From: Parcubacteria group bacterium
GTDB lineage: Bacteria > Patescibacteriota > Minisyncoccia > SW-4-49-11
Direction of reading: 5' to 3'
Assembly (NCBI GenBank): GCA_943354045.1
Contig: CALRBF010000001.1
Location: 259,860-323,859 of the forward strand
DNA length: 64,000 nt
Notes under the pieces: model-generated
Database searches by the model: none
What the model was told of the DNA's origin: nothing
The model's input: the letters and a program-made list of their open reading frames with translations, nothing else
Made by a program: the position numbers and the translations under genes
In this document: positions 3,931 to 60,996 of the stretch, piece after piece
Layout of the letters: the number at the start of each line of letters is the position of its first letter
Position numbering within the stretch: position 1 is the first letter of the stretch

Positions 3931-4179
3931 TGCACTATAAGTAATATTTACATACCCCCAGGCCATAGTAGGCCTACAGAAGAAATTTATACGGTTAGTG
4001 AGCTTAGACAAATATTGAAATCACCCCATGAAACCATAAAGCAATTTGATGGGAATAATAGCTTCATTATAGACCTCAGGGAAAAACACTACCCCCCACA
4101 GAACATTCCCCCGACTCTGCAGCGATGCAGAGTCTTTCTTTACTCAAAAATACTCTCAAAAATTTAATTTTATATACAC

Positions 4180-5175
4180 TTACTTTTTCTGAAGTTTACT
4201 TTCTAGTTGATTTATAGTATCCAGATAAGATTGTTCTACTGGGCTTAGAGTTTTTTGCTGATATTTTTTATATTCATCTTGAGCTTTTTGCATTGCTTCT
4301 TTACTACTAATTTTACCTGCATTTCGTAAGACTTCTTCCCCTGTAGCCAACAAAATACTATCTAAATGGTCTGCCCAATCTTGCATCTTCATTGGGACTT
4401 GTCTTTCTGCTTGTCTTTCAGCAAAGTCTAGATATCCTGAGACTATTTGACCCAATGCTCTTAATTCTTTTTCATCTAGATAATTTTTAGCTATTGAGAT
4501 ATCTTGTAATTGCGGGGTATTCCCAGTAAAGGTAGTGAGTCCCATAAATTCTTTTTCCGCATCAGCTCGATTATAAATCACTTCAGCTGCAGTTTGTTTA
4601 TGTACTGCATAATGTATTTTGTTCTGGACTTTTTTGAAAAATTCAATTGAAGTTTTATTATTAGCATCATAATCTATACTTGTTGCATAGATATCTAATA
4701 TCTGTCTATAAAAAACTTTCTCACTAGCTCGAATATTTCGTATACGGGTTAGCAATTCTTTCCAATAATTACCTCCGCCTAGATTTTTGAGCCTCTCATC
4801 ATCCATCGTGAAGCCTTTGAGTATATATTCTTTTAACCTTTGAGTTGCCCAAATTCTAAATTGAGTGGCTATTTTGCTATTAACTCTATAACCTACAGCG
4901 ATAATCATATCTAGATTATAATATGCAATTTCACGATTAACCTCTCTAGTACCTTCTTTTTGAACTATCCGGAAATTCCGGACAGTTGATATCTCGGCTA
5001 ATTCCTGAGTTTTATAGATATTTTGTATATGTTCACTAATAGTTCTGACATCAACTTCAAAAAGTTCTGCCATTAATTTTTGAGATAACCAAATCGTCTC
5101 ATCCTCTATAAAAACATTCAACTTTACCGCTCCATTGGAATCTGTATACAATATAAAGTTGTTTTGCTCAGTCAT
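4180..5175 (-). CDS. RhuM-family (virulence-associated, Fic/DOC-neighbourhood type) protein
   Basis: 331 aa; N-terminal block 'TIWLSQKLMAELFEVDVRTISEHIQNIY...IAVGYRVNSKIATQFRIWATQ' is typical of PF13310-like RhuM proteins; flanked by direct repeat copies. Confidence 0.6.
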   Translation of the reverse strand: MTEQNNFILYTDSNGAVKLNVFIEDETIWLSQKLMAELFEVDVRTISEHIQNIYKTQELAEISTVRNFRIVQKEGTREVNREIAYYNLDMIIAVGYRVNSKIATQFRIWATQRLKEYILKGFTMDDERLKNLGGGNYWKELLTRIRNIRASEKVFYRQILDIYATSIDYDANNKTSIEFFKKVQNKIHYAVHKQTAAEVIYNRADAEKEFMGLTTFTGNTPQLQDISIAKNYLDEKELRALGQIVSGYLDFAERQAERQVPMKMQDWADHLDSILLATGEEVLRNAGKISSKEAMQKAQDEYKKYQQKTLSPVEQSYLDTINQLESKLQKK

Positions 5176-46519: not shown

Positions 46520-46745
46520 TTCTTCGTAGGGGCGACCTTTCAGTCGCCTGTGCTTTATAAAGATCATTTATTGCAGGAGACAAGAAAATACTGTCCTCCT
46601 TTGCCTGCCTGCGGTAGGCAGGCAGGCAAAGGAGGTGGATTGGGTTTCAGATTACATTTTATCCACCCTCCCCCTACGGGTACTCCCTCCAAAGGGAGAC
46701 AAAAACACAACTTCACGCAAACTCACACATGGCTCCGACTTTCGA
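46520..46745. repeat. Mosaic palindromic repeat (m3 + m1 long palindrome + m4)
   Basis: 'cgtaggggcgacctttcagtcgcc', 'ctgtcctcctttgcctgcctgcggtaggcaggcaggcaaaggagg', 'ttatccaccctccccctacgggtactccctccaaagggagac'. Confidence 0.75.
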
Positions 46746-46752
46746 GTCCTGA

Positions 46753-46786: not shown

Positions 46787-46799
46787 ATTCTTTGTACTA

Positions 46800-46886
46800 G
46801 GAGAGGGACTCGAACCCTCACAGTGTTTAATCACCGACGGATTTTAAGTCCGTTGCGTCTACCATTCCGCCACCCTAGCTGGTGTT
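46800..46886 (-). tRNA. tRNA-Leu (anticodon TAA)
   Basis: Reverse complement 'gctagggtggcggaatggtagacgc aacgga cttaaaa tccgt...gagggttcgagtccctc'; long variable arm; ends approximate. Confidence 0.8.
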
Positions 46887-53559: not shown

Positions 53560-54189
53560 CTATCCCAAATGAGCATGGTCATTCCAAGTAACTATTTTCC
53601 AATCCTTTTTTATTTCGTCAAATTGCATCCATACAATACCCGTATTACTCATAATAAAGTTATCTGTGATAATTTTTGCCTCTTTTGGTGTAACATTAGA
53701 ATCAAATAGTCTATACCAGATAAGACAATGCAGAAAATTTTTATGGGTTACAATAATAATATTGTCTTCCTTCCTAGACTCGATAAATTCAAATGCTTTT
53801 TGGGCTCTTTGTTTTAAATCCTCAAAATTTTCTTCATCAGAATGTCTATAACTTAATATTTCCCAATTATCTGCAATTGCTTTATCTATAGCTTTTAATT
53901 CTTCCAGCTCTTTACTCTTTTCTTCTTGAATAGATGGTCTTTTTCTTTCTCTAAATAATTCATTCTTCTCAATAGGTAAATTCACTGTCTTAGATATATA
54001 TTCAGCTGTTTCATATGCCCTCGTATAAGGACTTGATATCAGTAAATCAACTGTAATATTACTTAACCGCCTAGACGTTGTCTGCGCTTGTTCATGACCT
54101 AATTCAGACAATGGGATACTCGCCGATTGATATACCCTCAATGTATTTCCCTCTGATTGCCCATGGCGTACAAAATATATATTTTTCAT
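53560..54189 (-). CDS. Histidine phosphatase family (phosphoglycerate mutase-like) protein
   Basis: 'MKNIYFVRHGQSEGN' RHG motif. The ORF-track N-terminal extension to 54240 reads through the tRNA-Ala 3'-end duplicate and is rejected. Confidence 0.7.
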   Translation of the reverse strand: MKNIYFVRHGQSEGNTLRVYQSASIPLSELGHEQAQTTSRRLSNITVDLLISSPYTRAYETAEYISKTVNLPIEKNELFRERKRPSIQEEKSKELEELKAIDKAIADNWEILSYRHSDEENFEDLKQRAQKAFEFIESRKEDNIIIVTHKNFLHCLIWYRLFDSNVTPKEAKIITDNFIMSNTGIVWMQFDEIKKDWKIVTWNDHAHLG

Positions 54190-54190
54190 A

Positions 54191-54320
54191 TGTGGACCTG
54201 ACTGGGATACAAACCAGACTGGTAGTCTTGGGAAACCCACGGTTTCCCAACCTTCCTAGACAGGAAACTCCCGTTTCCCGACCCCTTCCCAACTGGCTCG
54301 ATCATTTGTTTAGTTAATAC
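54191..54320 (-). mobile_element. Miniature insert 3' of tRNA-Ala: partial tRNA 3'-end duplicate (18-nt exact direct repeat) plus a conserved two-hairpin GC-rich module
   Basis: 'tgtggacctgactgggat' at 54191-54208 and 54321-54338; module 'ggaaacccacggtttccc...ggaaactcccgtttcccgaccccttcccaactggctcgatc' shared with 57187-57300. Confidence 0.5.
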
Positions 54321-54322
54321 TG

Positions 54323-54395
54323 TGGACCTGACTGGGATCGAACCAGCCACCTCCTCGGTGCAAGCGAGGCGCTCTACCAGATGAGCTACAGGCCC
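54323..54395 (-). tRNA. tRNA-Ala (anticodon TGC)
   Basis: Reverse complement 'gggcctgtagctcatctggtagagcgcctcg cttgcac cgagg aggtg gctggttcgatcccagtcaggtcca'. Confidence 0.85.
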
Positions 54396-54451: not shown

Positions 54452-55360
54452 CTAATTTAGATTTGTATGGGTAAAATCTAATAACTGGAAGTTATTTTCT
54501 TGAATATATTCTGGTGTCACTGTATACAATACTGGTGCAAAATTTGTCGTAACATATTCTGTAGACTGTATTTTGCCATTTACTCTACACTCCTTCAAAA
54601 TTTCATTATATCGAAAATATATATCGCCCCTTTTTACAAAACAATGATTTTTTTCAATAATATGGTATTTTTCTGGAATTCTTTTTGTGGTTAGAACTTG
54701 CCCCTTAAGATGTGTGTCTGTAAGCCATATTTTTAATTGAAGAGGTTGATTTGATATATTTTCTAACTTTAGATCAATAAAATTATATAATATCGTAGCT
54801 CCACCACCAAAAGGTAATGTTCTCCCAGAATCAGGAAAAACGTCCATGGAATGATGATATCTCTCTATAGTTTGCATTGATGTGTGTAAAAATATCCAGT
54901 ATAAAAAATTAGAGAGCTGACATAGTCCTCCCCCTAAACCTGGGATAACCGCCCCGTTTGCAAGTAACATTCCATCTACATATCCTTTGTCATATGTGGG
55001 TTTCCCAATCAATTTCCATAAAGAAAATATTTTTCCCGGCTCAATAACTACTCCATCTAAATGTTTAATTGCCTGTTTAAGATTAGTTATCTTTTGTTCT
55101 TGTAACTCCAAGTCACTATCACCAAGCCTCCTCCTAAGTACCGATTGATGCCGCGCAACTACCATTGGCAAAAAATCTTCCGTCTGATAACATCGTATTT
55201 TAGAATCTAAAATATTAGATATCGTACGAGATGTATGTCTTACAAATAAAATTGGCTTTTGAATAAAAGGATATTGTTTTGATAATGCAGTTCTCTTTGG
55301 CGACTCATATTCTGTTAATAATTTTTGTACCTTACTCCACAAGTCTCCTGGCTCATCCAT
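54452..55360 (-). CDS. VanW-like protein
   Basis: 302 aa; 'GGGLCQLSNFLYW' resembles the VanW-domain G-G-G-x-C-Q motif. Confidence 0.5.
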   Translation of the reverse strand: MDEPGDLWSKVQKLLTEYESPKRTALSKQYPFIQKPILFVRHTSRTISNILDSKIRCYQTEDFLPMVVARHQSVLRRRLGDSDLELQEQKITNLKQAIKHLDGVVIEPGKIFSLWKLIGKPTYDKGYVDGMLLANGAVIPGLGGGLCQLSNFLYWIFLHTSMQTIERYHHSMDVFPDSGRTLPFGGGATILYNFIDLKLENISNQPLQLKIWLTDTHLKGQVLTTKRIPEKYHIIEKNHCFVKRGDIYFRYNEILKECRVNGKIQSTEYVTTNFAPVLYTVTPEYIQENNFQLLDFTHTNLN

Positions 55361-55495
55361 ATAATATAATATAATTTATATTATATTATATTATATTTTA
55401 TACTACATCACCAGTATACTTATCCACATTATTCGTGTTCGACAGTATCAGCCGTCCCTAAATAAAAGAGAGAAGTATAACTCCTCTCTTTATTT

Positions 55496-55572
55496 TGGCG
55501 GGGACGGCCGGGCTCGAACCGGTGACCTTCTGCGTGACAGGCAGACGCTCTAACCAACTGAGCTACGCCCCC
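55496..55572 (-). tRNA. tRNA-Asp (anticodon GTC), CCA encoded
   Basis: Reverse complement 'gggggcgtagctcagttggttagagcg tctgc ctgtcac gcaga aggtc...ggttcgagcc...cgtccccgcca'. Confidence 0.85.
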
Positions 55573-57104: not shown

Positions 57105-57137
57105 AATTTTGTTTTGAATAATTGAGGGGGGGGGTAT

Positions 57138-57324
57138 TCGATTTCTGGTTTTTTACTCGTTTACGGGGGTGTCTCCGATTGGGATCTCAGTCGCTATAGC
57201 TCCTTGGAAACCCACGGTTTCCAACACTCGGAGTAAACTCCTCGCTGCCTTCCTTCACGGGGAACTCCCGTTCCCCGACCCCTTCCCAGTTCGATCCTTT
57301 AATTATTTACTTTTAATTAATATT
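57138..57324 (-). mobile_element. Miniature insert 3' of tRNA-Arg: 49-nt exact direct repeat of the tRNA 3' end plus trailer, enclosing the conserved two-hairpin GC-rich module
   Basis: 'tcgatttctggttttttactcgtttacgggggtgtctccgattgggatc' at 57138-57186 and 57325-57373; module 'ttggaaacccacggtttccaac...ggggaactcccgttccccgaccccttcccagttcgatcc'. Confidence 0.55.
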
Positions 57325-57356
57325 TCGATTTCTGGTTTTTTACTCGTTTACGGGGG

Positions 57357-57430
57357 TGTCTCCGATTGGGATCGAACCAATAACCTACAGCTTAGAAGGC
57401 TGTTGCTCTATCCAATTGAGCTACAGAGAC
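57357..57430 (-). tRNA. tRNA-Arg (anticodon TCT)
   Basis: Reverse complement 'gtctctgtagctcaattggatagagcaacagc cttctaa gctgt aggttattggttcgatcccaatcggagaca'. Confidence 0.85.
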
Positions 57431-60597: not shown

Positions 60598-60996
60598 TCA
60601 TTGATAAAGATTTATAAATCCTTCTTTTACTTTAGCAAAATCTATTTCATTCAAAGACCCCATTTTGTTATGCCGTCTCCTATAATCAATTGTTCTGACC
60701 TGCTGTAAACAAGCTGTTATTCTCTTACCTTGATATTCATAGGCCACATACCAAGTACCTGTTTTATTTTTGGTAGTTGTAGGAATAACCAAATATGTCC
60801 ATTTACTTAATCTTTTTAATATAATAACTGGTCTAGAAAACTTATCTCCCTTACCGCTGACTTCTGTTCCAATATTCTCTCCTAATTGACACCACCAAAT
60901 ATCTCGTTCTTTGACAAATGGAGCTTTGTGATTACTTTTATCTAACTTAGATTTTAATACTAACCATTCCTTAAATCTTTTGATAAATTTTTGCAT
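60598..60996 (-). CDS. MazF/PemK-family endoribonuclease toxin-like protein; no antitoxin ORF evident
   Basis: 'ERDIWWCQLGENIGTEVSGKGDKFSRPVIILKR...YLVIPTTTK' matches the MazF/PemK core; surrounded by repeats. Confidence 0.55.
   Translation of the reverse strand: MQKFIKRFKEWLVLKSKLDKSNHKAPFVKERDIWWCQLGENIGTEVSGKGDKFSRPVIILKRLSKWTYLVIPTTTKNKTGTWYVAYEYQGKRITACLQQVRTIDYRRRHNKMGSLNEIDFAKVKEGFINLYQ

Follow-up and report, generated by a model that had tools for sequence, protein, structure and literature searches.

Elements that integrate into transfer RNA (tRNA) genes reportedly fall into sublocation classes, set out by Williams in 2002, which are said to include tyrosine integrases that cross over in the T-loop. 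In the tyrT repeats of Escherichia coli (RtT RNA, RF00391), about 19 nt of the tRNA 3′ end are repeated downstream, in tandem units of 178 bp. The genomes of Patescibacteria, the candidate phyla radiation (CPR), are very small, and few mobile elements have been recognised in them. Here we analyse a stretch of 64,000 nt from a Parcubacteria group bacterium (GenBank assembly GCA_943354045.1, contig CALRBF010000001.1, positions 259,860 to 323,859), referred to below as the window, in which a short block separates a tRNA-Ala gene from a histidine phosphatase gene. This block is probably a copy of a family of Patescibacteria mobile elements that are non-autonomous, site-specific and free of open reading frames (ORFs), and whose insertion sites are 3′ gene ends, mostly those of tRNA genes and rarely those of protein-coding genes. 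On the best reading of the data, the family spreads laterally.

An insertion downstream of tRNA-Ala

We used the phosphatase protein to find syntenic metagenome contigs, in which tRNA genes for Arg, His, Asp and Ala are followed by the phosphatase gene. In five of them (L122, L124, L125, L128 and L129) the phosphatase ATG lies 1-2 nt past tRNA-Ala, with neither the spacer and inverted repeat nor the module described below; the window and a related metagenome-assembled genome (MAG), L009, have 130 nt extra at this site. Since the orthologous sites in related contigs are empty, the 130-nt block between tRNA-Ala and the phosphatase is an insertion.

The block is bounded by an exact duplication of the tRNA-Ala 3′ end, as had been claimed in an earlier note made from the sequence alone: the 18-nt sequence TGTGGACCTGACTGGGAT is present at 54191-54208 and again at 54321-54338, and the bases flanking the two copies differ on both sides. 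By our own arithmetic, the chance of an exact 18-nt repeat within 130 nt is about 1e-8. ARAGORN and the Rfam tRNA model (62.7 bits) place the insertion target, tRNA-Ala(UGC), on the minus strand at 54322-54395 (with its 3′ end at 54322/3), so that the tRNA-proximal copy, direct repeat 1 (DR1; 54321-54338, minus strand), corresponds to the tRNA 3′ end from T-loop position ~58 to two bases beyond the discriminator. In L009 the repeat at this site is 21 nt long, taking in the GTA of the GT-ATG flank. The tRNA-distal copy (DR2; 54191-54208, minus strand) is followed by a single T and then by the phosphatase ATG, and its junction, GGTCCACAT-ATG, is the same as that of the empty site of L122.

Between the two repeats, and all on the minus strand, lie the following parts in the direction of the tRNA. 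An AT-rich spacer (54304-54320), which is not present in the empty sites and whose position is taken by a terminator-like hairpin in GC-richer genomes, leads to an inverted repeat (IR; GATCGAGCCAG, 54293-54303), 10 of whose 11 bases match the reverse complement of the T-loop and T-stem 5′ strand of tRNA-Ala (CTGGTTCGATC) and which is likewise missing from the empty orthologous sites. Next come a conserved core, GGGAAGGGGTCGGGAAACGGGAGTTTCCTG (54261-54290, by exact pattern match), which includes the hairpin P1, CGGGAAAC-GGGA-GTTTCCTG (54261-54280), and a second hairpin, P2, TTGGGAAACC-GTG-GGTTTCCCAA (54228-54250). The right end of the element (54209-54227) carries a pseudo T-arm, CCAGTCTGGTTTGT, a copy of the T-stem and T-loop with a 1-nt insertion. 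The earlier note had described a degenerate T-arm at this position, and the alignment bears it out: acaaaccagac precedes the distal repeat where the tRNA has cgaaccagcc, giving GGTTTGT|ATCCC versus GGTTCG|ATCCC across the junction. The junction GGTTTGT|ATCCCAG is common to the window Ala copy, to L009 and to L111, where an Ala-type copy sits at another gene, tRNA-Ala(GGC). Right-end junctions of other copies read CTCGAG|ATCC or CTCAAG|ATCC, following the T-loop of their own tRNA.

The 112 nt that separate the Ala repeats align with an insert 3′ of tRNA-Arg(UCU), with which they share both hairpins and the motif TGGGAAGGGGTCGGGRAACGGGAGTTYCC, and the homology of the two inserts that the earlier note proposed is thereby established. 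Within the window, the hairpins and motif occur solely behind tRNA-Ala and tRNA-Arg, and 0 matches were found in 100 shuffles. The sister copy (57137-57430, minus strand) is recognised by its exact 50-nt repeat, its alignment to the Ala copy and its orthologues in L009 and L129, and comprises the tRNA (57355-57430), DR1 (57324-57373), spacer (57298-57323), IR (57289-57297), core (57258-57287), a right end that stops at 57187, and DR2 (57137-57186). Comparison of the two copies, a covariation check that had been suggested earlier, revealed two-sided pair changes in both hairpins: an A-U pair of P1 is replaced on both sides by G-C, the outer pair of P2 is likewise changed on both sides, and one further P1 pair is formed in the Arg copy only. 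Directly past the Arg DR2, and ~25 nt upstream of the start of a LOG-family gene, lies a run of G9 at 57126-57134 (C9 on the coding strand), a tract that could be slippage-prone; its equivalent in L009 reads ACCCCAC.

Orthologous sites in the related contigs hold the element in several states. L123, whose phosphatase is 100% identical to that of L009 across the 94 residues that L009 contains, retains the spacer, IR and GGGA at the Ala site, followed by an imprecise deletion reaching into DR2. At the tRNA-Arg site, L129 has a full copy, and the copies of L122 and L124 are truncated after GGGAAGGGGTCGG. The tRNA-Asp site is empty in L125, full in L009, full but mutated in L124, occupied by a nested insertion in L129 and reduced to a stub in L122. 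In the window, tRNA-Asp (55496-55572) is followed by a terminator hairpin and then by a degenerate IR of the tRNA 3′ part (AGGGACGGC...GTCGAAC; 55437-55459, minus strand), with the module absent; this looks like a decayed remnant, given that the same site is full in L009 and empty in L125. Even between close relatives, copies have been acquired, have decayed and have disappeared. A pre-existing IR in empty targets can be ruled out, because the empty sites are without it and the loci that have an IR only are deletion relics. We note that the same truncation point, directly after GGGAAGGGGTCGG(G), recurs in three copies (L122 ~2212-2226, L122 ~4034-4047 and L124 ~731-744), two of which run on as TGC...AAAATC; deletions might cluster at this shared end, it might mark a second recombination boundary, or the copies might be a short variant of the element.

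The flanking phosphatase gene, which lies outside the element (53560-54189, minus strand), truly starts at MKNIYFVRHG. The six-frame ORF has a longer N-terminus, 'MGFPRLPVWFVSQSGPH', which the earlier note had taken for a misread start and which is an artefact, because the match to the Pfam model His_Phos_1 starts from residue 4 of MKNIYFVRHG, the public gene calls give a length of 209 aa, the five relatives with empty sites have their ATG at this position, and a 1-nt indel just upstream, seen between the window and L009, disrupts the frame of the longer ORF. In the ancestral layout of the five empty sites (cf. window 54187-54191), the gap between tRNA-Ala and the ATG is so short that a ribosome-binding site would not fit, and tRNA 3′ processing would therefore yield an essentially leaderless phosphatase mRNA. 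The window phosphatase is 81% identical overall to that of L122. Over its first 94 residues it is ~61% identical to the L009 protein, to which other relatives are 87-100% identical there, and to judge from these sequences the N-terminal part of the window phosphatase looks unusually diverged or recombinant.

Size and anatomy of the family

We then scanned one genome per species with a 25-nt core pattern, GGGAAGGGGTCGGNNAACGGGAGTT. At least 117 loci match, nearly all of them in Patescibacteria lineages; ~13 of the matches listed carry Bdellovibrionales or Gammaproteobacteria MAG labels, which could not be verified. Among the matches listed, a same-strand tRNA lies 17-200 nt upstream in 85 of 120 copies, with 19 amino-acid types represented, and an opposite-strand tRNA lies nearby in 1 of 120; the background expectation for a same-strand tRNA that near is ~2% (our own arithmetic, from the tRNA density in the loci). 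Of the remaining copies, some lie at the end of a contig and others at a protein-coding 3′ end; copies are always co-oriented with their target gene. In L112 (938-1250) and L068 (6916-7240) the target is the 3′ end of hppA, which encodes an H+-pyrophosphatase and whose last 29 codons are intact again past the element, and in L103 the first 15 codons of an opposite-strand gene are duplicated. These further copies, together with the empty, filled and decayed orthologous sites, uphold the earlier proposal of a site-specific element family; its description as recently active could not be borne out for the window genome itself, where both the Ala and the Arg copies are shared with L009. A fuzzy search for diverged cores in 0.9 Mb yielded one additional copy, with indel variants escaping the search.

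Across copies the order of parts, in the direction of the tRNA, is DR1, spacer, IR, core with P1, optional hairpins, P2, right end and DR2. DR1 begins 15-19 nt ahead of the tRNA end in 48 of 57 copies, and the spacer is often a terminator-like hairpin. The IR is an inverted copy, up to 22 nt long, of the T-loop, T-stem and acceptor 3′ strand of the element's own tRNA. An IR of 12 nt or more is present in 31 copies, and its inner end falls 0-2 nt from the core in every one and at tRNA position 50-53 in 28. The IR straddles the left edge of the repeat, non-tRNA targets included. The core is 30 nt long and near-invariant, and its P1 loop, GGGA, is of the GNRA type. Besides G-U variants, P1 shows a two-sided change from A-U to G-C in 4 of 56 sequences. 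P2, represented by 55 distinct hairpins, contains 480 Watson-Crick and 7 G-U pairs, with 3-5 pair types at stem positions 4-8; RNAalifold, applied to 56 copies, recovered P1 and missed P2 owing to misalignment of loop lengths and a bulged A. Because G-U pairs are nearly absent (7 of 487), the stems were uninformative for strand assignment. Conservation is moderate at the right end, where a degenerate copy of the T-loop, longer by one base, is often found.

The direct repeats always start in the T-loop and end at a variable point downstream, so that they measure 12-55 nt where exact and up to ~88 nt overall. They are spaced by tens to ~300 nt in all 76 copies for which both repeats were measured, and in no copy is there an ORF, or room for a gene, between them. 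The block of identity has a sharp left edge in the T-loop, to the left of which there is merely partial T-loop similarity. At hppA, the two copies of the gene end agree over the first 39-43 nt; of the next 17 codons, 14 differ, with 13 of the changes synonymous, and both copies retain the stop codon. Such a pattern does not result from duplication followed by decay. In addition, the terminators that follow the two repeats differ by compensatory changes.

The age of the copies can be gauged against the LOG gene beside the Arg copy, which in the window, L009 and L129 has a protein identity of 78-86%, with 49-59% of 4-fold sites differing. The Arg module (101 nt) is 94-96% identical among the same three, and its flank, spacer and IR are 88-91% identical; the proximal unit of the window Arg copy and the distal unit of L129 differ, by eye, at ~2 of 64 positions. 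This low divergence compared with host neutral sites argues for spread of the Arg copies after the lineages split. We read the conservation mainly as post-divergence spread combined with extra constraint on the module, because sister lineages have deleted or truncated copies.

The element family is a mosaic. A second subfamily has CUAGAGGGC-GGAA-GCCCUAUAG in place of P2, and tRNAs that have an IR and not this core expose further module families of like layout. Short hairpin modules are nested in the P2 loop in L035, L042, L045 and L056 (e.g. after CCGTGGG), and in or after P1 in L033, L071 and the tRNA-Asp copy of L129; recurrent sub-modules include CCGAGTCTTCGAGG and GCGAAGC mini-hairpins. 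A different module family with the same layout lies in the window downstream of tRNA-Leu(UAA) (46794-46879), at ~46600-46750 on the minus strand, and consists of a terminator hairpin, an inverted T-arm copy, AGGACTCGAA (46741-46750), then AGTCGGAGCC..., and GC-rich palindromes such as GCCTGCCTGCCTACCGCAGGCAGGC, with no clear second repeat at this locus. Its AGTCGGAG...GGGGTCG family is also found in L046, L075, L088 and L116. A sizeable share of Patescibacteria tRNA genes appear to carry such modules, which are present at 2 of 7 tRNA genes in the window, in addition to the decayed remnant and the second-family module, and at 3 of 5 in a related contig.

Searches for linked enzymes found no integrase, transposase or reverse transcriptase associated with the copies, and clustering of proteins encoded within 3.5 kb of the 117 copies listed revealed no enriched family. 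Among the matches listed, an ABC transporter formed the largest cluster near copies (8 loci), and no more than 3 loci had a serine recombinase. The earlier note had staked its reading on further copies and on copies linked to an integrase: copies are many, and none is integrase-linked. According to Pfam, 40 window ORFs are housekeeping genes, including those for Pol I, RuvC, MutS/L, PNPase, SufBDS and RpoA. Rfam 15 matched solely tRNA, RNase P and transfer-messenger RNA in the window and 18 other loci, both at the gathering score and at E-values up to 10. Nor does the block resemble a group I intron: such introns in Patescibacteria tRNA genes sit at position 35/36 (PMC13011429), whereas here the tRNA upstream is complete, and no Intron_gpI match was obtained at E-values up to 10. 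No description of the element was found in the literature searched, with the core sequence included as a query; the sole relevant paper treats group I introns, another feature. Hammerhead, IS91 GAAC-target and attC core motifs were also compared by eye and did not match. Elsewhere in the window, a RhuM-family gene and a MazF/PemK toxin gene (4183-5175 and 60598-60996) are the sole accessory-looking genes among the ORFs, and an AT-only perfect palindrome, ATATAATATAATATAAT / ATTATATTATATTATAT, lies at 55359-55401 between a VanW-like gene and the tRNA-Asp region.

Proposed mechanism and alternative explanations

We tentatively propose an account of how the element moves, which we regard, taken jointly, as possible rather than probable. 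Integration would occur by conservative site-specific recombination with crossover in the T-loop, like that of integrases that cross over there, and the element would bring with it a new 3′ end and terminator to replace those of the target. The sharp T-loop edge, the hppA divergence pattern and the compensatory changes in the terminators support conservative integration with an element-borne end. Since the IR always straddles the left edge of the repeat, the site may be offered as a folded hairpin in which the repeat is paired with the IR, in the manner of CTX-phi attP or integron attC. The recombinase would act in trans from an unlinked gene, and might be a housekeeping enzyme. An alternative, enzyme-free route would be homologous recombination after DNA uptake, by which the element could be copied into empty alleles of other lineages, a route made possible by its position between two halves of a highly conserved tRNA gene.

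Several observations weigh against a mobile element of this kind. Neither the proteins encoded near the copies nor the window ORFs pointed to a recombinase or another protein that would mobilise the element, and no excised or circular form was seen. The repeats hold locus-specific flank, namely the GTA of the start codon (Ala), 31 nt (Arg) and the terminator (Asp), and are therefore more like a target-site duplication, as a classical attP would need to have originated at the same locus in a relative. With one end constant and the other shifting from copy to copy, the repeat has the appearance of a duplicated target, as target-primed reverse transcription would produce. Furthermore, the right end is in many copies a conserved element terminus and not a clear T-arm copy, and its similarity to the element's own tRNA is weak (4.35 vs 4.12 matches of 9, ~2.5 sd). 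Nor does the model account for the occurrence of one family on 19 tRNA types, in each of which repeat and IR match the target. Finally, conservation of the module could stem from selection at the level of the host, and not from recent transfer.

This last point would find its natural place if the module were a host-functional structured RNA, co-transcribed with the tRNA, vertically inherited and under purifying selection; as variants of the idea, it could serve as a signal for processing or insulation that ends in a tRNA-like 3′ handle, or be a small RNA freed by RNase P and RNase Z. Such a function would suit a core with at most one mismatch in all copies seen, a module ~10x more conserved than 4-fold sites, the GNRA and UUCG loops and tandem G-A motifs on the tRNA-sense strand, and the invariable co-orientation of module and tRNA. 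It would also suit the window, where tRNA and module are not separated by a terminator and are followed by same-strand genes, and the IR and DR2 could in principle pair into a helix mimicking the T-stem and acceptor stem. We nevertheless consider it unlikely, because close relatives, among them two contigs apparently of one species, have orthologous sites from which the element is missing or in which it is truncated or deleted, and because in most other genomes a terminator does separate the tRNA from the module; moreover, the scarcity of G-U pairs in the stems leaves them without a strand signal, and function alone does not explain the target-derived repeats or the hppA insertion.

The geometry of the repeats would instead be accounted for by a retroelement resembling a short interspersed element (SINE) and inserted by target-primed reverse transcription, in which the bottom strand would be nicked in the T-loop, a tRNA-sense read-through transcript would anneal via its tRNA-like 3′ end, and a variable second nick would set the repeat length. 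This would fit a T-loop boundary that is fixed and adjoins the 3′ end of the element while the other boundary varies (14-88 nt), the locus-specific flank inside the repeats, the strict orientation, and the inclusion of protein-coding 3′ ends such as that of hppA among the targets; the IR would resemble a primer-binding site complementary to the tRNA 3′ part. We think this quite improbable, however, as a reverse transcriptase was found neither near copies nor in the window, and group II introns were not detected when 95 complete Patescibacteria genomes were surveyed (PMC13011429). Conservation peaks at the 5′ end rather than the 3′ end, and the synonymous-only divergence in hppA better fits an element-borne replacement end than a fresh duplication. 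A snap-back origin of the IR, by synthesis from the terminator, is contradicted by non-complementary segments within the palindrome, and was rejected since the outer arms pair perfectly, whereas the discriminator/CCA segment inside them is not complementary and is unequal in length. The third possibility is that a large prophage or island has lost its interior and left an att scar. A repeat running from the T-loop to the tRNA 3′ end is indeed the classical signature of tRNA integration, but this explanation is largely refuted and very remote: in all 76 measured copies the repeats stand no more than tens to ~300 nt apart, the interior is a structured module that different classes share in conserved form, no integrase lies within 3.5 kb of the copies listed, and the core gave 0 matches in viral contigs.

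If the block does belong to a mobile element family, as we favour, the element is probably of the non-autonomous site-specific kind, or it may use a new mechanism instead. One rather doubtful idea is that of a new, protein-less class of elements carrying their own target address in the form of a target copy that is folded or base-paired, with the IR as a guide beside an invariant scaffold. Such elements would owe their movement to housekeeping enzymes or to a factor that is unlinked and common to the CPR; a guide-type IR would then let a module of ~100 nt home to any conserved tRNA 3′ end superphylum-wide. Mobility without a linked enzyme would imply that integration follows a mechanism not yet recognised, in which a hairpin or base pairing may act as the guide, and the element would in that case be a route for lateral DNA between very divergent CPR lineages. 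For annotation, the modules cause spurious N-terminal ORF extensions and pseudo-tRNA 3′ ends, and they make a sensitive marker of CPR contigs.

Comparison with known systems

Like the tyrT repeats and RtT RNA, the present elements have a repeat of a tRNA 3′ end, ~19 nt long in tyrT, which lies downstream and bounds a short non-coding unit, co-transcribed in the case of tyrT. The tyrT arrangement, however, is tandem and confined to one enterobacterial locus, is without a conserved core, an IR or a distribution over multiple tRNAs, and gave no Rfam match here. The elements also recall miniature inverted-repeat transposable elements (MITEs), repetitive extragenic palindromes (REPs), bacterial interspersed mosaic elements (BIMEs) and REP doublets forming hairpins (REPINs) in being short, ORF-less, GC-rich and palindromic, in forming hairpin mosaics, in lying at gene 3′ ends and in nesting. 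Unlike in these, the flanking inverted and direct repeats are derived from the target and are not the element's termini, the duplication is long and variable, tRNA specificity is strong and orientation strict; thus the element-owned terminal inverted repeats and fixed short target duplication by which MITEs are defined are not found. Copies number a few per genome region rather than hundreds, neither a parent insertion sequence (IS) nor a REP-associated tyrosine transposase (RAYT) was found, and no autonomous IS with the same ends was seen in 0.9 Mb of flanks or in viral contigs.

Further parallels are offered by CTX-phi, integrative mobile elements exploiting Xer (IMEXs) and integron attC sites, which have two inverted site copies on one side of the integrated element, folded sites that vary in sequence and length and share a structure, a tyrosine recombinase acting in trans (here proposed), and an extra unpaired base in the arm, here the 1-nt insertion in the T-loop copy. 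Yet the present target is the T-arm of a tRNA and not dif or attI, there is neither a GTTRRRY core nor phage or cassette cargo, and a single-stranded intermediate would be purely inferred. The hallmarks of integron attC, namely RYYYAAC / GTTRRRY sites, an integrase and attI, are likewise absent, the junctions here reading TTCGAAC|core and pseudo-T-loop|ATCC.

The remaining comparison is with elements of T-loop tyrosine integrases and with their cis-mobilisable derivatives (CIMEs), whose genes have been lost. The present elements differ from these in having no integrase inside, adjacent or in the window, including at the att site, where tRNA-integrating elements have one, and in a size of ~120-300 nt; their use of 19 tRNA types by one family, their inverted target copy and the locus-specific flank in their repeats are further differences. 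In other respects they are alike: the block of identity starts abruptly in the T-loop and reaches at least as far as the tRNA 3′ end, the element side shows partial T-arm mimicry, the 3′ end and terminator of the target are restored, and protein-coding 3′ ends are used as well. The direct repeat of the tRNA 3′ part from the crossover loop, which characterises tRNA-integrating elements, is found here as the exact 18-nt and 50-nt repeats of the window and in 48 of the 57 copies compared.
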